Below, in pieces: positions 573-10,782 of a stretch of DNA of 64,000 nt. The DNA comes from Cyanobacteria bacterium REEB446. GTDB taxonomy: Bacteria; Cyanobacteriota; Vampirovibrionia; LMEP-6097. The position numbers were made by a program, and so were the translations under genes. Every line of letters begins with the position of its first letter. Within the stretch, counting starts at the first letter, position 1. The DNA lies in assembly GCA_018970325.1 (NCBI GenBank), contig JAGWWP010000005.1, positions 1,594-65,593 of the forward strand, read 5' to 3'. Under the pieces are notes generated by a model that searched no databases, was not told where the DNA came from, and saw nothing but the letters and a program-made list of their open reading frames with translations.

Positions 573-1175
573 TTATGACAGATGTAAATCTTTCTCTTTT
601 AAATCTGAAAAAAAGCTTTTACCCTTAGCATTCAGCTCATCTATTTTTCTAACTACATCATTTTCTATATAGCTAAGAATCTGTTGTGCGTAATTATCAG
701 CATCTTCTTTAATTCTTCTAGCTTTAAGTAAAGCCTGCTCTTCAAATCTCTGAGCCTTTTCTATTGCTTGCATTCTAATAGTCTCAGCATCTGATTCAGC
801 ATCTTTAGTTAATCGTTTTGCATGTTCACTGCATTCATTAAATAAACTTTTCGCCTCATGTTCAGCTGATCTTTTTATTTGACTTTCATCTAAAAGCTTC
901 TCTGCTTGGTCTTTAGCCCTAATAAGCATAGTTTCGCATTCCTGTTTAGTCCTAGTAAGAAGATCATCAGCCTGTTTCCTAGCTTCAGTAAGTTCCTTAT
1001 CTCTTTTCTCAATAAGCTGCCTAGCCTCTTTTATTTCCTCTGGGATAGTCGCATAAAGATCTTCAAAAGCTCTCATCAAGTACTCTGGATCAATCATTTT
1101 CTGATTAATCATCGGTATGTTCTTAGCCTGTTCTATATATTCGCCGATTTCATCTAGTTTGCTGAAAATATCCAA
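573..1175 (-). CDS. coiled-coil protein, ATP-synthase-b / V-ATPase-E-like (function uncertain)
   Basis: 200-aa ORF, highly charged, continuous heptad-like K/E/A/R/Q composition and no TM segment. Overlaps coaD by 26 nt. Confidence 0.3.
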   Translation of the reverse strand: MDIFSKLDEIGEYIEQAKNIPMINQKMIDPEYLMRAFEDLYATIPEEIKEARQLIEKRDKELTEARKQADDLLTRTKQECETMLIRAKDQAEKLLDESQIKRSAEHEAKSLFNECSEHAKRLTKDAESDAETIRMQAIEKAQRFEEQALLKARRIKEDADNYAQQILSYIENDVVRKIDELNAKGKSFFSDLKEKDLHLS

Positions 1176-1677
1176 TATTTCTTCCCTCCAAATATTTACT
1201 CACACAATCTGGAACGAGAGTGCTTACATCTCCCCCCAATTCTAGCAATTCCCACACCCTGCTTGCCCTTATAAAAGAATATTCTGGGCTAGTCATCAAA
1301 AAAACAGTCTCAATAGAATCGTTATATCCTTTTAGAGATAGTGATCTATTTATCTGTGACATCTCTAGTTCCTGCTCAAAATCATTAGCAGCACGAATTC
1401 CCCTAAGCAATATTCTATAATCATTTGCCCTAGCGTAATCTATAACCAAGCCTTCGACTATCGATACCTTAACATTCGAAAGATTCGCCGTAGCTGTTTT
1501 AACTAAAGATTCTCTCTCCTTTGCATTCAAGATGGATTTCTTCCTAGAATTACTAGCTATAGCGATTTCAACACAGTCAAAAATCTCTACTGCTCTTACA
1601 AGCACGTCTAAATGCCCTAAAGTAAAAGGATCAAAACTTCCTGGATAAAGAGCTTTTTTAGCAGGCATTAGTTTCAT
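1150..1677 (-). CDS. coaD: phosphopantetheine adenylyltransferase
   Basis: N-terminal YPGSFDPFTLGHLDV matches the PPAT (T/H)xGH nucleotidyltransferase motif. 175 aa is typical CoaD length. Confidence 0.9.
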   Translation of the reverse strand: MKLMPAKKALYPGSFDPFTLGHLDVLVRAVEIFDCVEIAIASNSRKKSILNAKERESLVKTATANLSNVKVSIVEGLVIDYARANDYRILLRGIRAANDFEQELEMSQINRSLSLKGYNDSIETVFLMTSPEYSFIRASRVWELLELGGDVSTLVPDCVSKYLEGRNIGYFQQTR

Positions 1678-1933: not shown

Positions 1934-3946
1934 TTGCTTAGTACTTCTATAGGTACAAACAAGAGCTTTCTAGAACAAGGAGTAAATCCGAACACCCCAA
2001 CAAACCCAGAACCAACTGGGGCGATTTTTAACGCCGCTAAAGCCTTTAATCAAGGTTTAAAAGGAGAAGTCTCTTCTGCTAGGTCTGATAAGATTAACCC
2101 AAAAAATAAAAAGCCTATCTACGATAAATCGATATCTGGCTACCATGCTGATAATTATTATGGCGAGCGAAATTGGAACAAAGGCTTTGCTTATTCTCTT
2201 TGGGAAAGTGTTCTAAAATCTTGGACTAATGCTTTATTAACGAGTTCCTCAGCAGAAGCAGTAGTAAATGCGATCATCCAAGAAGGTGACGCGACCAAGC
2301 TATCAAACAATTTAGATGAGCACTGTAAGGAATTAAAGAACCTTCTTACAAGCAAAAACCTGTCGGAGACAGAGAGAGAAGCAACTCTTCAGCAGATCAA
2401 AAAGCTTGAAACTGCAAAAATTGATCCAAATAGTATAGAGTACAACGCTTTAAACAATAATATTGAAAAAACCTTTTCTGACTCATTCCTGTCACGCCTA
2501 GTCACAGACATTGGCATAGATCAATCTATCTCTGCTTTTCGTCGAATTTTCCCTGACTTTTCTAAAAAATATCCAATAATTAATACGCTTATTGGTGACA
2601 TTGTCGCAAGACCATTAACTTTTATTCTAAGAACTATTACCGCAGAAAATAATATACTGACTAACTCTTCAAACCATGGAGGCAAAGTGAGCCCTGAGCA
2701 GCAGATCATAATCGAAGCCATGAAAGACACTGGTGTAGCTAAACTAATCGGGTGGATAAGAGGGGAAGATGAAAATGGCGAGAAAAAATTTAGAATTGTA
2801 GATAAAGGAAACGGCGAATTAGTCAAAGAAGAGGCTGGCTTTAATCTTAAAAAAATCCTTGATCCATTTGTGAATAACGTAAACAAGTACCTTCTTGGCA
2901 TTACATCTGGTGAGACACTAAAAGACGCACAGGGTCAAATCCTCTATTCTACAAACTCTCGCGGTGAAAAAGAAGAAATTAAATCACTCGCAAAATTCAA
3001 CCCTATTCATTTTGGCATAACATCCCTAGCCAGCCTTGGTTTAACAGCACTCACCTTAGATAAAAAAGCTCAAGCGACAGGCTTCCAAGATGCTAATACT
3101 CCGTTAAAAGCCTTCGGCTCAATGATACTCAGCAACGCAAACCGCATAGATTCTGCTATGACCAGTTACGCACACGCATCAGTTCGCAAAGGCGAATCCT
3201 TCATGGGTATTTTCCATAATATTATTCCGAAAAAGCTACTAATGCCTATGTGCCAGAACTTCATGAAAGGCTTATCAAATCTACTACCTGGCGAGCTGCT
3301 CAACCCTGCCACCAAATCTATTCTATTGAATATGCTTGTGGAATTCACCGCTCCACCTTTTGTACAGAGCTTTATGCCAAAATCAGAGAAGAGAGCCATT
3401 GATAATGATACTCAATTCGTTTCTCATTCATTAATAAAACCTCCGCTATCTGAACTTATAAACGTCCTTAAAAAAGGCTGGATGTGGTGGGGTAAAAACT
3501 TCCACGCCGCAGTGGGGACCTATCCTGCTGTAATAAAATTAACTCCGACATCGAGTCCTTTCTGGCTTATCCAACAAATCAGCAGTAAAATAACAGGTCG
3601 CACTCCGAAAGATATACCTGGATTATTTAAAGAGAAGGAAGAAGAAGTTTTCGCGAAAGAATTACCAGATCACTTAGCAAGCTATAAAGATACTGGCATT
3701 GGCAAAACCGCCCTCCTCGCCGTCAAGAGCATTCTAAAAACCCCACTCAATGTTACAGATTGGTTAGTAAAATCAGGAGAAGCCAATAAGACTTACTCTA
3801 ATCTAACTAACAGTATCGTATCAGCAGCCAATCTCAAAAATACGCTCAAAGAGCGCATCCACACTAACGCCGCTAACAATATCGCACCAACAGCTAAGTT
3901 GAGAGAGATAATTCAGGGAAAGCAGCTAGCTCAAGCTTTGAACTAA
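1934..3946 (+). CDS. hypothetical protein (670 aa), lineage-specific
   Basis: Long uninterrupted ORF with no recognisable catalytic motifs. Follows a 250-bp AT-rich promoter region and ends at a palindromic terminator. Confidence 0.55.
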   Translation: MLSTSIGTNKSFLEQGVNPNTPTNPEPTGAIFNAAKAFNQGLKGEVSSARSDKINPKNKKPIYDKSISGYHADNYYGERNWNKGFAYSLWESVLKSWTNALLTSSSAEAVVNAIIQEGDATKLSNNLDEHCKELKNLLTSKNLSETEREATLQQIKKLETAKIDPNSIEYNALNNNIEKTFSDSFLSRLVTDIGIDQSISAFRRIFPDFSKKYPIINTLIGDIVARPLTFILRTITAENNILTNSSNHGGKVSPEQQIIIEAMKDTGVAKLIGWIRGEDENGEKKFRIVDKGNGELVKEEAGFNLKKILDPFVNNVNKYLLGITSGETLKDAQGQILYSTNSRGEKEEIKSLAKFNPIHFGITSLASLGLTALTLDKKAQATGFQDANTPLKAFGSMILSNANRIDSAMTSYAHASVRKGESFMGIFHNIIPKKLLMPMCQNFMKGLSNLLPGELLNPATKSILLNMLVEFTAPPFVQSFMPKSEKRAIDNDTQFVSHSLIKPPLSELINVLKKGWMWWGKNFHAAVGTYPAVIKLTPTSSPFWLIQQISSKITGRTPKDIPGLFKEKEEEVFAKELPDHLASYKDTGIGKTALLAVKSILKTPLNVTDWLVKSGEANKTYSNLTNSIVSAANLKNTLKERIHTNAANNIAPTAKLREIIQGKQLAQALN

Positions 3947-3956
3947 ATGATTAGAA

Positions 3957-4118
3957 CTAAGTGGCACACAATTGTGCCGCTCGATCACGACGCTGACTAG
4001 CACTGAAAGCCACTGAAGATTTATCAAGATTAGCAGCAGGTGCTATATGGTTCCTAAGCCAACCAGCTAAAGCATAAACCGAAAATCCGACTGCAACAGG
4101 TGCAACTAAAGGGTTCAT
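3957..4118 (-). CDS. small hydrophobic-N-terminus peptide, paralog 1 (53 aa)
   Basis: ATG (RC of 4116-4118) preceded by GGAGGT 7 nt upstream. Translation: MNPLVAPVAVGFSVYALAGWLRNHIAPAANLDKSSVAFSASQRRDRAAQLCAT. Paralogous to the ORFs at 4419-4583 and 5044-5235. Below the ORF-track size cutoff. Confidence 0.45.
   Translation of the reverse strand: MNPLVAPVAVGFSVYALAGWLRNHIAPAANLDKSSVAFSASQRRDRAAQLCAT
3960..3982. terminator. bidirectional hairpin terminator (GTGGCACACAATTGTGCCGC)
   Basis: Near-perfect palindrome GGCACAcAAtTGTGCC directly after the stop of the + strand 670-aa gene and the stop of the - strand small peptide gene 1. Confidence 0.4.
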
Positions 4119-4338
4119 AAAAGAACCTCCCCAGATATAAACATAAATCCCTCTTCACACAATAAATAAGATTTATAGTTTTTAATTTTTTAAAAGTTTT
4201 ACGACTCTCGCCAACCGAATTTGGTACAGAAACACGGAAAGTTATTAATTTGGTTCCTACTATATTACTGTATAAACTTTAGAATTACCATATTATTCAC
4301 AATTATTTAAGATTTGCCGTTTATCCTTGAGAAATAAT

Positions 4339-4388
4339 AAGCAAAGAGACACCTGCACAATGATAACGCAGAAATTATCGCTGTGCAG
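4339..4388. terminator. hairpin terminator downstream of small peptide gene 2
   Basis: GAGACACCTGCACA...TGTGCAGGCGTCTC, a 14-bp stem with one mismatch. Followed on the minus strand by a T-rich tract (TTTGCTTATTATTTC). The loop contains ACGCAGAAATT, a fragment of the dispersed core repeat. Confidence 0.4.
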
Positions 4389-4418
4389 GCGTCTCGTAAA
4401 AGCTTCACCAGAAAGCTC

Positions 4419-4583
4419 TTAACAGGCAGCTAGGCGATTACCAGTTAATCTGCTATCCGACGAAGATTTAGCCGCAGAGTTAATAATCGGTGCATCTAGA
4501 TTAGCCTTAACAAAGCACTTATTTGCTGCATCTGCAACCTTGAGAACACCGAACATACCACCAGCCAATAATAAAAGTGGCAT
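4419..4583 (-). CDS. small hydrophobic-N-terminus peptide, paralog 2 (54 aa)
   Basis: ATG (RC of 4581-4583) with GAGGT RBS. Translation: MPLLLLAGGMFGVLKVADAANKCFVKANLDAPIINSAAKSSSDSRLTGNRLAAC. The track ORF 4496-4711 is in another frame and is probably spurious. Confidence 0.45.
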   Translation of the reverse strand: MPLLLLAGGMFGVLKVADAANKCFVKANLDAPIINSAAKSSSDSRLTGNRLAAC

Positions 4584-4816
4584 AAATTAACCTCAAAATA
4601 AAACAGTAAAAATAAAAAACCTCTCCTCACACATTTGAAGATTTTTATTAAATTACTGTTTAAAATTAAACATTTTAAGACTTGCGTCAACCATGTTTGG
4701 TACAGAAACATGGAAAGTTATATAAGAATTATTATACAGCCTCTAATGCGGCTAATCAAGTGGGCTTAGGATAATTTAATCTTTCAAGAAACGAATACTC
4801 ATCTACTTTTTACAGT

Positions 4817-4968
4817 CATTCCTCCTCGTCCTGAACTTACACGCTTGCGAGCAGTGCCTTGAACTTATATATTTGCGAGCAATCCCACTGTACATCAGTC
4901 TCCAAGACACTGCTACCAGACTCCAATCTTTACGTTTTCATCGTCCTCAGCTTGGACTTGCGCGTTCC
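4817..4968. repeat. degenerate/composite copy of the MITE-like element
   Basis: Contains CATTCCTCCTCGTCCTGAACTT, TTGCGAGCAGTGCC, TTGCGAGCAATCCC, CTCCAATCTTTACGTTTTCATCGTCCTCAGCTTGGACTTG. All are diverged versions of blocks in the 381-568 and 33.9-kb copies. Confidence 0.5.
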
Positions 4969-4987
4969 TAGACAGTTTCTTTAATTA

Positions 4988-5025
4988 ACAAAGGCAAGAG
5001 TGAAAATTCTTACCTTTGTTAATTG
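4988..5025. terminator. hairpin terminator downstream of small peptide gene 3
   Basis: TTAACAAAGGCAAGA...TCTTACCTTTGTTAA inverted repeat immediately 3' of the stop at 5044 (minus strand). Confidence 0.4.
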
Positions 5026-5043
5026 TGTTTAGTTTATTTAAAT

Positions 5044-5235
5044 TTAAGCTGACTGCAATGTGGGCTTCAACATAGACGAAGCTTGTGAGCGATCATTAGG
5101 AGATCCCGATGTAGCAGAATTTGTCTGTGAATCATAGCTTGATGACGCAGGATTAAAACCATTCTGCCTCGCCTGTCGTAACGCCAAACAAGCAGATAAA
5201 CCTACAACAGATATTGGAGCTAAGAGAACATTCAT
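5044..5235 (-). CDS. small hydrophobic-N-terminus peptide, paralog 3 (63 aa)
   Basis: Track ORF. MNVLLAPISVVGLSACLALRQ..., N-terminal hydrophobic segment and Ser/Thr/Asn-rich tail as in paralogs 1 and 2. GAGGTG RBS. Confidence 0.5.
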   Translation of the reverse strand: MNVLLAPISVVGLSACLALRQARQNGFNPASSSYDSQTNSATSGSPNDRSQASSMLKPTLQSA

Positions 5236-5441
5236 TCAACACCTCAAAATATTTCAGGTGTTTTAAGGACTTGCCAACCAAATTTAATACATAAACTTGG
5301 AAAAGTGTGAAGAAGACCACGCTCAATTAATTCTTTTAAAATCAACTAAACGCTTACATGAACTAGTATAAGCTAATATCAATAAATGCAAAGTTAAAAG
5401 TCATTCATGTCGTATTATCTTTTATGAAAATTTTTTAAGAA

Positions 5442-5471
5442 ACGCCGAAATTAAAGTTCGGCAACAGTGCC
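5442..5471 (+). repeat. core repeat copy (ACGCCGAAATTAAAGTTCGGCAACAGTGCC)
   Basis: Variant of ACGCAGAAATTGGAGTTCGGCAACACGCC, sitting just 3' of the leuA-like gene stop. Confidence 0.4.
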
Positions 5472-5492
5472 TTAGAGATTGCAAGCAGCCCC

Positions 5493-7154
5493 CTAAGCTA
5501 ATTCAACTGGCTTAACGCCATACTTGATCAAGCCATATTCAATACTGTCAACAATCGCATCCCAAGAAGCTTTTATAATATTAGTACTAACTCCGATAGT
5601 ATCCCAATCTTCTGCTAAATTTCCAGTATTCACCTGAACCTTAGTCAGAGCCGCCGTCCCAAGTGAGCTGTCCTGAATCCTTACTTTATAATCTAACAAC
5701 TGAAATTCTTCTATCTTCGGATAGAAATTTACTAAAGCTTTTCTAAGAGCTTTATCTAAAGCATTCGCAGGACCATTACCCACACTTGCAGAGTGGATTT
5801 CCTCACCTGCTATTTCGATTCGCACCGTAGCCTCTGTCTTCTCGCCATTTGAAATATATACATTATGCTCCACTAGCTTAAAGTATGGCTTATAAGCCTT
5901 GAGTTTAGTTTCAGCAGAGCCTTCTACATCTATTAATTTACGCACCATTAACTCTAAACTCGCATCAGCATTCTCGAAGCTATATCCCTTATGCTCTAGC
6001 TTCTTCACTCTCTCTAAAACAGTTTTAGCGAATTCCCCGATAATTTCATCACTCGCCTTCGGAGAAAGCTTTTTCTTCTGTAGCCAATCTAGTATATTAC
6101 TCACCCCAGACTGCTCTGAAATAATAATCTTAGTAGCATTACCTACTAAAACAGGGTCTATATGCTCATAGCTAAAATCTTGCTTCTTCATCGCGCTTGC
6201 ATGCAAACCCGCTTTATGAGCGAAGGAGCTAGCTCCCACAAAAGGCTGATGAGCACTGTGGTGCTGATTAGCGATTTCAGCGACAGCATGAGAAAGACTG
6301 CTCAAATGTTTTAACTTATCCTTAGGTAAGCACTTTAATTTCTCTTCAGTATACTTAAGCTCTAGGTTAGGAATTATAGAAATCAGATTCGCATTACCAC
6401 AGCGCTCTCCATAGCCATTAATGGTTCCCTGCACCTGCGTAGCACCAGCTCTCACTGCTCTAATACTGTTAGCTACCGCGAGTTCACAGTCATTATGTGC
6501 ATGTATACCAATTTTAATAGGGGTCAAGCTTGAACTTGCATATTTGCAAGCAGTCCCAGCATAAGCCTCAATAATCTCTTTAGTGATTTTAAAAACCTGC
6601 TCAGGCAGACTACCACCATTAGTATCACAGAGCACCAAAGTTTCGGCCCCAGCCTCCACTGCAACTTTAGCAAACTTAAGCGAATAAGCAGAATCAGCCA
6701 TATAGCCATCGAAGAAATGTTCTGCATCTATTATCACTCGGCGGCCTTCTGATTTTAAGAAAGATATGCTTTCAGCTAGCATATCTAAATTCTTGTCTAG
6801 GGAAATCTTTAAAGTATTGGTAACCTGTGGGGCAGAGCTTTTCCCCACTATGCAAATCACCTCAGTCTCTGCTCGTAAAAGAGCAGCTAATATAGGATCT
6901 GACTCTACCTTGGTATTCGCCTTGCGAGTGCTACCAAAAGCTACTAGCTGAGTGGTTTTCAGCTTAATCTTTTTCGCTTCACTAAAAAAATCTATATCCT
7001 TCGGATTCGCCCCAGGCCAACCGCCCTCCACGAAAGCGACACCAATATCATCTAAGAGCCTGAGCACTTTGAGCTTATCATTCACGCTAAAAGAGATGCC
7101 CCGCATCTGCGCGCCATCTCTAAGTGTAGTATCGTAAATCTCTATTGCTCGCAT
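5493..7154 (-). CDS. leuA: 2-isopropylmalate synthase / (R)-citramalate synthase family (LeuA/CimA)
   Basis: N-terminal IEIYDTTLRDGAQ and HxH metal-site context (GIHAHNDCELAVANS) define the HMGL-like TIM barrel. C-terminal LeuA-dimer-like region. The track ORF starts at a TTG at 7196. The first 14 codons are encoded by a copy of the dispersed core repeat, so the ATG at 7152-7154 (MRAIEIYDTT) is the likelier start. Confidence 0.8.
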   Translation of the reverse strand: MRAIEIYDTTLRDGAQMRGISFSVNDKLKVLRLLDDIGVAFVEGGWPGANPKDIDFFSEAKKIKLKTTQLVAFGSTRKANTKVESDPILAALLRAETEVICIVGKSSAPQVTNTLKISLDKNLDMLAESISFLKSEGRRVIIDAEHFFDGYMADSAYSLKFAKVAVEAGAETLVLCDTNGGSLPEQVFKITKEIIEAYAGTACKYASSSLTPIKIGIHAHNDCELAVANSIRAVRAGATQVQGTINGYGERCGNANLISIIPNLELKYTEEKLKCLPKDKLKHLSSLSHAVAEIANQHHSAHQPFVGASSFAHKAGLHASAMKKQDFSYEHIDPVLVGNATKIIISEQSGVSNILDWLQKKKLSPKASDEIIGEFAKTVLERVKKLEHKGYSFENADASLELMVRKLIDVEGSAETKLKAYKPYFKLVEHNVYISNGEKTEATVRIEIAGEEIHSASVGNGPANALDKALRKALVNFYPKIEEFQLLDYKVRIQDSSLGTAALTKVQVNTGNLAEDWDTIGVSTNIIKASWDAIVDSIEYGLIKYGVKPVELA

Positions 7155-7184
7155 GGCACTGTCGCCAATCTCCAATTTTTGCGT
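7155..7184 (-). repeat. core repeat copy abutting the leuA start codon
   Basis: RC reads ACGCAAAAATTGGAGATTGGCGACAGTGCC immediately 5' of the ATG. Confidence 0.5.
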
Positions 7185-7192
7185 TTTCGTGT

Positions 7193-7594
7193 TCAATATG
7201 TAGCATTAAAATCATAAGGATCGAAATCAATAAAATCACCATCCAAGCTCATAGCCGCTGCCGAGAAAGGACTATCCTGACTAATTCTTACACCATTAAT
7301 CACACCACGTAAAAGACCTGTCACACCGCCAGCGACACCACCAATAAAGAAACCTGATGGCACACCAACTAGTCTTGGAAGCAGTCCTTCGCCAAATTCC
7401 GTAGAAAATGATGAAGCATACTGTGAAGACTTAGAAACAGCTCCACGTGCAAGACCAAAAAAACCACCCAAAGGCGCCGAGATTAAAGATGAAGTAACTT
7501 TAGAAACAGCTCCATGAGAGCTGTAAGCAGGACTTGCACCTAAAAGTAAACTTAACGCAAGAACCAAGAAAGATAATCTTTTAAGAAAAGTCAT
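7193..7594 (-). CDS. secreted glycine-rich hypothetical protein
   Basis: N-terminal signal peptide (LSFLVLALSLLLGASPAYS) followed by Gly/Ser-rich repeats (GGFFGLARGAV, GFFIGGVAGGVTGLLRGV). Confidence 0.4.
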   Translation of the reverse strand: MTFLKRLSFLVLALSLLLGASPAYSSHGAVSKVTSSLISAPLGGFFGLARGAVSKSSQYASSFSTEFGEGLLPRLVGVPSGFFIGGVAGGVTGLLRGVINGVRISQDSPFSAAAMSLDGDFIDFDPYDFNATY

Positions 7595-7646: not shown

Positions 7647-8384
7647 TTAGACTGCCCCAGAATGACTCTTTAAAAATCCTTCTGGAATCAGCTGATAACC
7701 ACCACCGTAGACAGTCTTAATATATTTTTTTGCCCCAGCTTCTATCCTAGATCTTAAATGACGAATATGCACTCTAATAGTATCTATATCATCTTCAGGT
7801 GAATAGCCCCAGACTTCTTTAAGAATAAGACCCGGTGATACTGTTTGACCATGATTCTGCATTAAGCAATGTAGAACTTCAAACTCAATCGGAGTGAGTC
7901 TTAAAATTTTATCTTCAATTTTAACTTCTCTAGATTCTGGCATTAAAGTAATGTCTCCAGAATGAAGAACTTCAGGAATTGACTGAGCTAACGTAATAGC
8001 ACCAGATCTTCTAAGAAGCGCTTTAACACGTACAAAAAGTTCAGGAAGCTCAAAGGGTTTAGTCAAATAATCATCAGCACCAGAATCGAAACCAGTAACT
8101 TTATCGTTAGTGCGGTTAAGGGCTGTAAGCATTAATACTGGTGTCTCTTTCGTTACATCATTCTGTCTAATGCGTTGACAGGCAGTAAAACCATCCATAT
8201 TAGGCATCATCAAATCAAGAATAATTAAATGTGGTGGCTTCTGAAAAGCCATCGCCAAGCCATCTATAGCGTTATCACAAGACTCAACATTATAGCCCTG
8301 CAATTCTAGATTAAAACTCACAAGTTCGAGTATAGCCGGATCATCATCAATGACGAGAATATCTTTTTTTAGTTCCTGATTCAT
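7647..8384 (-). CDS. OmpR-family two-component response regulator
   Basis: Receiver domain with DDDP...ILDLMMP...LTA...DDYLTKPF, then a winged-helix trans_reg_C output (LTPIEFEVLHCL, RVHIRHLR, GYQL). Confidence 0.85.
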   Translation of the reverse strand: MNQELKKDILVIDDDPAILELVSFNLELQGYNVESCDNAIDGLAMAFQKPPHLIILDLMMPNMDGFTACQRIRQNDVTKETPVLMLTALNRTNDKVTGFDSGADDYLTKPFELPELFVRVKALLRRSGAITLAQSIPEVLHSGDITLMPESREVKIEDKILRLTPIEFEVLHCLMQNHGQTVSPGLILKEVWGYSPEDDIDTIRVHIRHLRSRIEAGAKKYIKTVYGGGYQLIPEGFLKSHSGAV

Positions 8385-8400
8385 AGCTCATAACATTCTA

Positions 8401-9198
8401 TCAAACACCGTCATCGCTAGCTATTATTTTTTTTCTTTTCCTTAAAACCTTACCCAAAGTACTAAATATCTGCGTTCTTTTGCTGCGATTATGATAAATA
8501 TGCTTATAAAAATCACTCAGCTCTTGCTCTAAAGCTGCGAGGCTGTCATACCGCTTTAATTTTCCCTGCTTTGCCATAGAAATATCACCAGTCTCCTCTG
8601 AAACTACGAAACACAGAGCATCTGTAACTTCACTAAAACCGATAGCAGCCCTATGTCTAGTTCCATACTGCCAATCTAGCTTAGGGTTCTCCGTCATCGG
8701 TAATATAACACTAGCTAGGGCAAGCTGAGTTCCACGAATAATAACAGCACCATCGTGCAAAGGAGATTTATTATCAAAGATAGTCATCATCAGCTCCGTA
8801 GAAATATCTGCATTAATAGGGAAGCCTGCATTAATGTAATAACGCTCTGCCTGAGACTTTTCTACGATAATCAAAGCCCCTACTCGCCTCTTCTGTAGCA
8901 TCTCTAAAGAAGCGACAATATTTTTATTCGCCTTCTCTAGCTGATCTAAAGATTTATGGCCGTCTATATAATTTAGAAGATTAAACTCACCACCTAACTG
9001 AATCAATACTCTGCGAAATTCAGGAGCAAATATAACGATTAAACCCACAATAAAAGTCTGTGAAAATATCTCAAAAATTTTAGTAAGTATACTTAGTTTC
9101 AAAATATAACAAAGCATCATTACCGGCAGAAGCATAATTAAACCTCTTAGGATTCTCTCTGCCTGTGTGCCTTTAAAACGATCATAAGCCTGATACAC
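8401..9198 (-). CDS. cdaA: diadenylate cyclase (c-di-AMP synthase), membrane-anchored
   Basis: Three N-terminal hydrophobic helices followed by a DAC domain with the hallmark DGAVII, GTRHRAA and SEETG motifs. Confidence 0.8.
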   Translation of the reverse strand: MYQAYDRFKGTQAERILRGLIMLLPVMMLCYILKLSILTKIFEIFSQTFIVGLIVIFAPEFRRVLIQLGGEFNLLNYIDGHKSLDQLEKANKNIVASLEMLQKRRVGALIIVEKSQAERYYINAGFPINADISTELMMTIFDNKSPLHDGAVIIRGTQLALASVILPMTENPKLDWQYGTRHRAAIGFSEVTDALCFVVSEETGDISMAKQGKLKRYDSLAALEQELSDFYKHIYHNRSKRTQIFSTLGKVLRKRKKIIASDDGV

Positions 9199-9381
9199 TA
9201 ACCAAGCTAAAATCGCAAGCTGTATCGCTACAGTAAAAAGACTTACAGTATTAAACTCTATATCTAAAAACTTATATAAAAGCTCGCCTACATCTAAATA
9301 GTTCAGCTCTAGACTAGTGTTATCAACTGGGATAGTGGTACAACCTCCTTAAGAAGACGATGAAGCCTTCTCATTACTTCC

Positions 9382-10782
9382 CTAAGATAAACTCTGAGGC
9401 AATTCATCCCATTGTACGACATCCTCATAAGTCTCTCTTCTTATAATAATATCGGCTCTGCCGTTATTTACAAGTAGCATGGCTGGTCTTCGCACTCGAT
9501 TATAGTTACTTGCCATACTGTAATTATAAGCACCAGTCGAATAGACTACCAATACATCATCATGATTCAGCTCTGGAAGATCGATATCACGAATCAGTAT
9601 ATCCCCAGATTCACAGAATTTACCTGCGATAGTGACTTTTTCTGTTTTAGCATCACCAATCTTTCCATCTACCTCAGCATAGTAACGAGCTTGGTACATA
9701 ATGTGCCTAACGTTATCTGCCATACCACCATCAACAGCTACAAACTTACGCAGATTCGGAATATTTTTAATATTCCCGACCTTATAAGCCGTTATACCAG
9801 CGGGTCCTACTATACTTCTACCAGGCTCCACTATTACTCTTGGCAAATCTAAATTCAGTGCTTTACAGTTAGCAACTATAGAATCAGCCACCACTTTCAC
9901 CCAGTCATTAATCTCTGGAGGATCATCGTGCTCATGATATTTAATACCTAAACCACCACCGACATTAATATCCTGTAAGCTAATGCCGTATTTATCCTTA
10001 AGGCTTTTGTATTGATTCAGTAAAACTCCCGCAACATCGTTATGCGGCATGGTTTCAAATATCTGTGAACCTATATGAGCATGCAAACCCTTAATGTTTA
10101 TATTTTTATACTTCTCTTTTAGAGCAAGTATTCTAGAGATAAGTTCATCAACCTGAGACAGATCAAAACCAAACTTACTGTCAATTCTGCCAGTCTTAAT
10201 ATATTCATGCGTATGGCATTCGATACCCGGAGTCACTCTAATAGAGAGGTTCACTACCGTATCTACAGAAAATTTTTCACGAAGGAGCTCTGAAATAAGT
10301 TCTAATTCATAAAAATTATCAAGCATAATAGAACCGATTTGATTTTCTATCGCCATCTCAAGTTCATCTTTGCCCTTGTTATTACCATGAAAAATAATTT
10401 TTTCCTTTGGGAAGCCTACCGACAATGCCGTAAATAGCTCTCCACCACTGACCACATCAATACCTAAGCCCTCGCTGTCTATAATCTTGCAGACCGCTTT
10501 ACAGTTAAGTGCCTTACTTGCATAAATAACTAAGCTTTCACCTGAATAAAACTCCTTAAAAGCATTTACATAGAGCCTTGCACGAGTACGAATAGTTTCT
10601 TCGCAGAGAATATATAAGGGGCTACCATATTTAGTAAGTAAATCTTTTACTTTAAGTCCTGCTATTGTAATATTATTGTTTGCATCCACCGCATAACTAA
10701 GCGGTTTCAAGTGGCTAGAAATTTGATCTAATTTAGAACTAAGAGAAGCACCTTGAGCTATCATAGGACACGATACTAGCAT
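9382..10782 (-). CDS. lysA: diaminopimelate decarboxylase (PLP-dependent Orn/DAP/Arg decarboxylase fold)
   Basis: HAHIGSQ, GGGLGI and EPGRSIVG motifs. 466 aa is the long-form LysA length. Confidence 0.8.
   Translation of the reverse strand: MLVSCPMIAQGASLSSKLDQISSHLKPLSYAVDANNNITIAGLKVKDLLTKYGSPLYILCEETIRTRARLYVNAFKEFYSGESLVIYASKALNCKAVCKIIDSEGLGIDVVSGGELFTALSVGFPKEKIIFHGNNKGKDELEMAIENQIGSIMLDNFYELELISELLREKFSVDTVVNLSIRVTPGIECHTHEYIKTGRIDSKFGFDLSQVDELISRILALKEKYKNINIKGLHAHIGSQIFETMPHNDVAGVLLNQYKSLKDKYGISLQDINVGGGLGIKYHEHDDPPEINDWVKVVADSIVANCKALNLDLPRVIVEPGRSIVGPAGITAYKVGNIKNIPNLRKFVAVDGGMADNVRHIMYQARYYAEVDGKIGDAKTEKVTIAGKFCESGDILIRDIDLPELNHDDVLVVYSTGAYNYSMASNYNRVRRPAMLLVNNGRADIIIRRETYEDVVQWDELPQSLS

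Follow-up and report, generated by a model that had tools for sequence, protein, structure and literature searches.

The locus described here lies in a 64,000-nucleotide (nt) stretch of the genome of Cyanobacteria bacterium REEB446 (contig JAGWWP010000005.1), the whole of which is called the window below. Between cimA, the gene for citramalate synthase, and coaD, its minus strand carries three small open reading frames (ORFs), numbered here unit 3, unit 2 and unit 1 in the order in which they follow cimA, that encode proteins of 63, 54 and 53 amino acids (aa). An initial annotation, made from the DNA letters alone, presented them as a tandem family of peptide genes, and the translations that it quoted match the sequence. 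It held that two of the three fall below the cutoff of ORF callers; in fact gene callers have picked up all three in several public assemblies, and NCBI lists two as 'hypothetical protein' entries. GAGGT or GGAGGT does precede every ATG as a ribosome-binding site, at a spacing of 5-6 nt rather than the 6-8 nt first given, and palindromic terminators do follow units 2 and 3, but the sole hairpin of unit 1 overlaps its last codons. The parts of the units are as follows; P1 and P2 denote stems of the RNA leaders, SD the Shine-Dalgarno sequence and CDS the coding sequence.

5365-5392, minus strand: candidate promoter of unit 3, TTTGCA-16-TATACT, with a -10 hexamer conserved in relatives.
5236-5358, minus strand: 5' leader of unit 3, with P1 at 5278-5300 (CCAAGUUUA/UAAAUUUGG, loop UGUAU) and an SD hairpin at 5238-5262.
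5044-5235, minus strand: CDS of unit 3, 63 aa, beginning MNVLLAPISVVGLSACLALRQ, with a polar tail and a C-terminal R-x-x-A-x-x-M/L motif.
4983-5024, minus strand: terminator hairpin of unit 3, 17-nt arms that are 94% complementary, with a highly conserved 3' flank.
4731-4759, minus strand: promoter of unit 2, TTGATT-17-TATAAT, with 10 of 12 consensus matches and a -10 hexamer invariant in all relatives.
4584-4724, minus strand: 5' leader of unit 2, with P1 at 4691-4713 (CCAUGUUU/AAACAUGG, loop CUGUACC), P2 at 4679-4688 (GAC-GCAA-GUC) and inner helices.
4419-4583, minus strand: CDS of unit 2, 54 aa, beginning MPLLLLAGGMFGVLKVADAANK and ending NRLAAC, lost in six related loci.
4346-4395, minus strand: intrinsic terminator of unit 2, 21-nt arms followed by a T-rich tail.
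4262-4290, minus strand: candidate promoter of unit 1, TGGTAA-17-TAATAT (TAGTAA-17-TATTAT in relatives), read from the sequence and the alignments.
4119-4255, minus strand: 5' leader of unit 1, with P1 at 4215-4237 (CCGUGUUU/AAAUUCGG, one mismatch) and P2 at 4203-4212 (GGC-GAGA-GUC).
3957-4118, minus strand: CDS of unit 1, 53 aa, beginning MNPLVAPVAVGFSVYALAGWLRN and ending RRDRAAQLCAT; it converges on a gene for a 670-aa protein across a 10-nt gap.
3963-3978, minus strand: hairpin of unit 1, GGCACAAUUGUGUGCC, coinciding with the last codons of the CDS.

CimA is 95-98% identical at the amino acid level to its counterparts in metagenome-assembled genomes labelled Vampirovibrionia or Candidatus Caenarcaniphilales, which are non-photosynthetic relatives of cyanobacteria. 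The Vampirovibrionia, which we take to be a diderm lineage, are almost entirely uncultured, and a literature search for their small proteins or regulatory RNAs found none. Syntenic loci came from three sources: genomes scanned with CimA (L009-L016), metagenomes scanned with the pattern of a block repeated upstream of the ORFs (L089-L100) and exact protein look-ups (L101-L106). They comprise 26 distinct coding variants, and in all relatives compared the locus keeps its syntenic position between cimA and coaD. Two of these are more distant: L092 (CimA 84.5% identical) has all three units in the same layout, and in L013 CimA is 81% identical and synonymous divergence (dS) is saturated. An origin from an integron attC site, a mobile cassette or a phage was rejected on the fixed synteny, the lack of a core-site match by eye and the lack of any match of the small-gene DNA in phage and plasmid collections (blastn).

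The annotated frame is open over 49-65 codons in all 26 coding variants, and the other five frames usually contain 1-10 stops (seven variants have one stop-free reverse frame). The guanine-cytosine (GC) content at third codon positions is 11-37%, compared with 38-50% for GC overall, and indels between orthologues are multiples of three. When 28 members drawn from all three paralogue groups are aligned, two columns are invariant: the start Met and, about ten residues before the C-terminus, an Arg that falls in a shared C-terminal motif, R-x-x-[A/G]-x-x-[L/M]. As the groups differ in their DNA at those sites, this invariance reflects constraint at the protein level. One caveat concerns unit 1, whose conserved AAQLCAT end overlaps the 3963-3978 hairpin, and where RNA and peptide constraints are confounded. 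Conservation of the DNA but not of the ORFs, the pattern that the initial annotation had set against its own proposal, is not what is seen: the ORFs stay open in the 26 variants while diverging far beyond the flanking DNA. These comparisons show the small ORFs to be real, paralogous genes, a family with a hydrophobic N-terminus and a polar tail, as first proposed.

The proteins themselves are fast changing. The ratio of nonsynonymous divergence (dN) to dS ranges from 0.3 to 3 for the small ORFs, with many values near 1, a dN of 0.15-0.6 and a dS of an order similar to that of cimA; for cimA in the same genomes dN/dS is 0.02-0.06 and dS 0.22-0.5. Mean nucleotide identity is 56% for the CDS of unit 3 and 44% for that of unit 1, against 93% for the last 900 nt of cimA. 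By these measures the small proteins evolve almost neutrally. The family is also small, with fewer than 35 members detected, and narrowly distributed: a word-indexed search of 5.8 billion proteins returned 29 members and an exhaustive profile search of 1.84 billion representatives only 17 matches, all from the same clade, and comparison of the small proteins with Pfam, NCBIfam, PADLOC and PHROG at E values up to 1 gave no match, including to the described families of type I toxins (Hok, Ldr, Fst, TisB, Ibs, TxpA and others).

What is kept, besides the C-terminal motif, is an architecture: about 20 hydrophobic, uncharged residues at the N-terminus, K/R immediately behind them, and a net-basic polar tail. 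Among 39 members, 38 are uncharged before position 15, the first charged residue has a median position of 20 and the first K/R of 21; the best N-terminal window of 17 residues has a mean Kyte-Doolittle value of about 2.0, and the tail is rich in S, A, N, Q and P with a net charge of +1.6. Since the positive-inside rule, applied to this charge distribution, places the tail inside, we infer a single transmembrane anchor with an N-out/C-in topology and a cytoplasmic tail, which is probably disordered. Among the three functions put forward initially, small membrane peptides fit best, and the signal-peptide option is disfavoured because K/R directly follow the hydrophobic stretch and almost no member is charged ahead of it, whereas a Sec signal peptide has a basic n-region, the opposite charge order. 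Two further candidates were rejected, a lipoprotein, suggested by LSAC in unit 3 (orthologues do not conserve the Cys), and precursors of ribosomally synthesised and post-translationally modified peptides (the N-terminus varies in sequence and no recognisable maturase lies in the neighbourhood). Orthologues of unit 2 end in LLAA or RLAAAL, which resemble the non-polar C-terminal degradation tags read by ClpXP or FtsH; we note this as a lead only.

The hypervariability of the tails, which nonetheless carry a conserved C-terminal motif, could also suggest that these are secreted pro-peptides, in which a Sec signal peptide exports a variable tail or C-terminus with a signal-like or bacteriocin-like role, possibly with the 670-aa protein as partner. 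In many members the hydrophobic stretch does end in small residues (ALA-G, GAA-R, AAAA-K), and AxA-like motifs are present in many; dN/dS is at least 1 in several close pairs; and the large neighbour is hypervariable too, the C-terminal type of unit 1 tracking the type of the 670-aa protein in eight loci. This co-variation is equally explained by linkage, however, because the two genes are adjacent, and the type of unit 3 does not track the large protein. In L013 unit 3 is present without an adjacent 670-aa gene, and the 670-aa protein has no recognised domain or fold match. With the charge order reversed in 38 of 39 members as well, we regard secretion as unlikely.

Upstream of the coding sequences the picture is reversed. 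The initial annotation described a block of about 45 nt shared by units 1 and 2; the block is real, but it is present in three copies rather than two and is longer, as a 56-nt direct repeat upstream of each ORF (4190-4245, 4666-4721, which is 82% identical, and 5253-5308, 63%). A pattern for its 28-nt core, TTCCNNGTTTNTGTANNAAANNNGGTTG, has exactly three matches in the 64 kb against 0.01 expected, and none of 100 shuffles reached three; a covariance model of the block recovers the same three sites of the window at 60-70 bits, the next match scoring 11 bits, and found no match near cimA of more distant Melainabacteria. The TTG(G/A)CG hexamers that were taken for -35 elements do exist, but a promoter role of the block is not supported, since better promoters lie upstream of it: a sigma-70-like promoter precedes the block in all three units, that of unit 1 scoring below the threshold of the promoter scan. 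The shared block is thus, on the evidence of the upstream promoters, of compensatory changes in a hairpin and of G-U pairs that form only on the sense strand, most likely the 5' end of a transcribed leader.

That the block acts instead at the DNA level, as a promoter with TTGRCG for its -35 and an upstream operator for a dimeric regulator, is very unlikely in our judgement. Acceptable internal promoters can be read in unit 2 (TTGACG-16-TAATTT) and unit 3 (TTGGCA-18-AATATT), and a dimer could bind the inverted repeat that the block carries. However, the promoters upstream of it are stronger and conserved, and the would-be -10 of unit 1 falls in the most variable A/T run of its leader. The inverted repeat changes by compensation and uses G-U pairs, where a protein-bound DNA site would be expected to keep its bases, and conservation runs on for about 100 nt to the SD, through helices that have compensatory changes of their own.

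Conservation of the leaders is indeed high. From the block to the ATG, the leader of unit 3 is 97.7% identical in eight genomes, and the leader regions of units 1 and 2, promoters included, have a mean identity of 91-92%, with most differences apparently in the promoter spacers. Change in the leaders is about tenfold below that at synonymous sites of cimA, and the block is nearly unchanged even in L013 and L092. For unit 2 this conservation is not due to coding: a 71-aa ORF that runs through its leader from an ATG inside P1 was rejected, since strains differ by a 1-nt indel that puts it out of frame.

The element common to all three leaders is P1, a stem of 8-9 base pairs with a UGUA-containing loop and CUUUCC and GGUUG flanks. 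Its pairing is kept in 95% of the cells over 16 distinct sequences; the stem reads CCGUGUUU/AAAUYCGG across unit 1 and CCAAG/CUUGG in unit 3 of L092. Compensatory changes occur at two pairs (AU/GC/GU and UA/AU/GU) and one further position alternates between G-U and G-C; as the G-U pairs would be A-C mismatches on the opposite strand, they point to an RNA read from the sense strand. RNAalifold, applied to 11 variants of the unit 2 leader, predicts 39 pairs, three of them with compensatory changes, and an inner helix of this leader (ACAGUAA/UUACUGU) has a UA-to-CG compensatory change. Single sequences also fold more stably than expected in unit 3 (z-scores of -2.8 and -3.6) and unit 2 (-2.2). 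Rfam 15 recognised only tRNAs in the whole window at the gathering score and gave only chance-level matches of 16-20 bits at E values up to 10 over 3800-5550; a literature search for the leader motif did not find it.

The SD is base-paired in the predicted ensembles of all three leaders, as in the closed leaders of type I toxin mRNAs. Its predicted accessibility is 0.07-0.20 across units and does not change from 15 to 45 C, yet the pairing partner differs in each unit. In unit 3 a local hairpin, AACACCU/AGGUGUU, buries the SD GAGGU (5240-5244), with four of five SD bases paired at a probability of about 1 over the same temperature range, and it is kept in L013 and L092 despite loops that differ in length and sequence. 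In unit 2 the UAACUUU of the 5' end (4714-4720) is predicted to pair over a long range with the SD region GAGGUUA (4588-4594), leaving the SD unpaired with a probability of 0.07; in the alignment this helix takes the form (U/C)AACUUU with GAGGUU(A/G), the flanking pair varying between UA, CG and UG. In unit 1 the main SD, GGGGAGGU (4125-4132), pairs with codons 2-4 (GGUUC/GAACC). Unit 1 also has an upstream ORF (uORF) of nine codons, MFISGEVLL, at 4115-4144 on the minus strand, with a strong SD of its own (GAGGAGGG) and a stop that overlaps the main start codon as ATGA. It is open in all 11 variants of unit 1 that have it, and in L092 the main ORF begins at the ATG of the uORF.

Because the predicted pairing of the SD is constant from 15 to 45 C, it argues for a trans-acting trigger and against an RNA thermometer, which was rejected. 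Another candidate, a Yfr1-like target in which GTGTGAGGAG would be complementary to ACUCCUCACAC, was also rejected: the motif is a strong SD, and the ORF of L092 starts right after it. Elsewhere in the window no RNA of the CTCCTCACAC type was found beyond chance.

Unit 2 offers a natural experiment on the relation of leader and gene. Its CDS and terminator have been removed through three different deletion junctions (L009/L101, L012/L089 and L010/L099), after which its promoter and leader are about 95% identical to the intact copies and lie directly upstream of unit 1. Retention of the unit 2 leader is therefore independent of the CDS that belongs to it; the orphan copy may provide unit 1 with an additional promoter and leader, or its role may be a separate one. 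The unit 2 ORF of L092 (179-337 of that locus, minus strand) lies about 260 nt downstream of the leader block and, unlike all other members, has Arg at position 2.

Such observations could be taken to mean that the leaders are stand-alone regulatory RNAs and the small ORFs dispensable passengers. Persistence of the unit 2 leader after three separate deletions would fit, as would its distance from any ORF in L092 and the tenfold difference between leaders and synonymous sites beside ORFs that are near-neutral. We nevertheless consider this highly improbable: in units 1 and 3 the ORF is always open, preceded by an SD and of unchanged protein architecture, with no terminator between leader and ORF, and the orphan leader may simply be the second leader of unit 1 mentioned above.

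The explanation that we favour, with a probability of about 0.55 for the whole of it taken jointly, is that the three units are separate transcription units, each made up of a promoter, a structured leader, a small CDS and a hairpin terminator, and that they encode small, N-terminally anchored membrane proteins whose translation is gated by a conserved leader with a common 5' hairpin. The mRNAs would be made in a translationally closed state, as we infer from the predicted folds. A postulated trans-acting factor would then recognise the shared P1 module and set the opening of the SD; P1 and its flanks are the likely recognition element because they are what the three leaders share. Such a factor would most likely be an RNA-binding protein, a small RNA (sRNA) or a small ligand being less likely, and the three units would form one small post-transcriptional regulon. 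Tight and redundant translational repression, tandem copies and the repeated loss of one copy suggest that the products are perhaps harmful when over-made, like the membrane peptides of type I toxin systems. We rank this gated-translation model above the alternatives of a signal peptide, a DNA operator, a stand-alone RNA and a mobile element.

Several points weigh against the model. The leader of unit 1 has neither covariation nor excess stability (z = 0.4), P2 is not alignable in unit 3, and the covariation stems from few independent events, in three paralogue lineages and a few strain variants, while the shuffle control for P1 ignores the relatedness of the sequences. Transcription start sites are placed from consensus matches only, and the internal promoters of units 2 and 3 are acceptable ones. 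A dN/dS of about 1 is equally expected of a protein under little constraint beyond being translated. Finally, the topology is deduced from charge bias only and has one exception, the Arg at position 2 of unit 2 in L092, which is signal-peptide-like.

The leader folds and the tandem arrangement raise the question of whether these are type I toxin-antitoxin loci, that is, membrane-damaging peptides whose mRNA is kept inactive by a folded leader and which an sRNA antitoxin neutralises, an option already listed in the initial annotation. Type I loci with folded leaders include hok/mok/sok, the tandem ldr/rdl and ibs/sib, zorO/orzO and tisB/istR. Several traits are shared with them: small hydrophobic peptides (typically under about 60 aa, and 49-65 aa here, with an N-terminal transmembrane-like segment), long conserved 5' untranslated regions that occlude the SD, by pairing of the 5' end with the SD as in unit 2 or by coupling to a uORF as in unit 1, which resembles hok/mok, and tandem copies of which one has been lost repeatedly, in a locus whose copy number varies between strains. 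No antisense or complementary sRNA, the partner that defines type I loci, was found for the small genes by sequence scan. The consensus scan detected no opposite-strand sigma-70-like promoter within any leader or CDS; the sole plus-strand promoter site (4845-4873) falls in the unit 3-unit 2 spacer and is not conserved, L011 having lost its -10 and L009 lacking the region; and no antisense terminator is evident. Neither Pfam nor NCBIfam assigns the proteins to a toxin family, their basic polar tails of 30-40 aa are only partly typical, and a dN/dS of about 1 argues for little sequence constraint. We hold membership to be possible, if on balance improbable: the leader architecture would appear to work like that of type I toxin mRNAs, but, with neither an antitoxin RNA nor homology to known toxins found, the units are not established as members of this class.

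Other known systems are matched in part. Enterobacterial small single-pass inner-membrane proteins such as MgrB, MgtS and AcrZ modulate larger membrane proteins. They are similar in size, in having one transmembrane segment (predicted here) and, for some, in tight post-transcriptional control, but they are single-copy, reasonably conserved and devoid of a shared leader RNA, whereas here three near-neutral paralogues share a hairpin. The cyanobacterial glutamine riboswitches (the glnA and 'Downstream-peptide' motifs), found upstream of gifA and gifB, are likewise conserved structured RNAs directly upstream of very short ORFs, sometimes in tandem and in a cyanobacterial lineage; in contrast, the present leaders have no Rfam match at E values up to 10, consist of a simple UGUA-loop hairpin that implies no ligand, and precede proteins with a hydrophobic anchor. 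Polymorphic peptide-signal loci, the 'pherotypes' of comC, agrD, phr and papR, share precursors that are short, hydrophobic at the N-terminus and functional at the C-terminus, strong divergence between strains within conserved flanks and a co-varying neighbour, but here the charges are arranged the opposite way from a signal peptide and no receptor, kinase or processing gene is recognisable.

Leaders more constrained than the synonymous sites of a housekeeping gene, bracketing coding sequences that change freely and yet stay open, form an unusually clear signature, which points to a testable post-transcriptional switch and to proteins that depend on architecture rather than on sequence. If the leader is a sensor RNA, a new motif would be added to those known; if the peptides are toxic, the Vampirovibrionia lineage would have a toxin-like module; and if neither holds, the locus would still be a well-documented, lineage-specific family of small proteins. 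A wider proposal, which we rate as doubtful when all its parts are taken together, is that P1 and the three leaders represent a new cis-regulatory or dual-function class of RNA, confined to Caenarcaniphilales, that would sense a dedicated protein or ligand and gate rapidly diversifying membrane peptides, which with the co-varying 670-aa protein would form a strain-specific system of antagonism or recognition (self/non-self, predator-prey or anti-phage).

The remaining features of the interval and its border are the following.

1934-3946, plus strand: gene for the 670-aa protein, convergent with unit 1; a lineage-specific, mostly helical protein.
4790-4982, minus strand: spacer between units 3 and 2, variable, with a tandem 27-nt repeat at 4832-4858 and 4860-4886.
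5443-5463: terminator hairpin of cimA, with the candidate promoter of unit 3 just downstream.
5493-7196: cimA (citramalate synthase), flanking the small-gene locus.

On these comparisons, coding sequence that evolves fast and leaders that are very conserved together make up a mosaic between cimA and coaD. That the leaders are not as divergent as the coding sequences argues against imported foreign DNA as the source of the divergence of this island. The 670-aa protein is 42-95% identical between relatives at the amino acid level where CimA and CoaD are 94-98% identical, and only 27 homologues were found, all in the same clade. It gave a sub-threshold match to ALIX in Pfam, a 12.6-bit match to a family of unknown function in PHROGs, a 17-bit match to LmuA in PADLOC that is probably spurious, and none in NCBIfam. 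Its AlphaFold model is mediocre (pLDDT 62.5), and Foldseek found no match to it in the PDB with an E value below 0.2; no receptor, kinase, TPR or peptidase domain was recognised. In L104, unit 1 (5931-6168 of that locus) lies on the far side of the large gene and is divergent from it.

The repeats of the spacer read TGAACTTAyA..TTGCGAGCA. A duplication of about 100 nt inside it is common to the window and L010. L009 lacks the spacer, and in L011 and L012 it is shorter. An SD and a short ORF led by ATG are visible in it, and it may be what is left of a fourth unit that has decayed. As a candidate sRNA or antitoxin, the region 4770-5000 was rejected, having no significant structure on either strand (z = -1.4 and +0.4), being variable in length and being absent in L009.

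Beyond cimA, the minus strand at 7193-7594 encodes a protein of 133 aa that is rich in Gly and Ser and has a signal-like sequence at its N-terminus, its end overlapping the start of cimA by 4 nt; it has no Pfam family and is conserved in all relatives, L092 included. It is followed at 7647-10782, also on the minus strand, by lysA (diaminopimelate decarboxylase), a DAC-domain diadenylate cyclase and an OmpR-type response regulator, in that order; linkage of lysA and cdaA is typical of cyanobacteria, which would agree with an assignment to Vampirovibrionia. On the other side of the locus (573-1677, minus strand), coaD (175 aa, CTP_transf_like) overlaps the gene of a 200-aa coiled-coil protein with weak DivIVA and ATP-synthase-B-like matches, and a tRNA-Gly(GCC) gene lies at 243-317.

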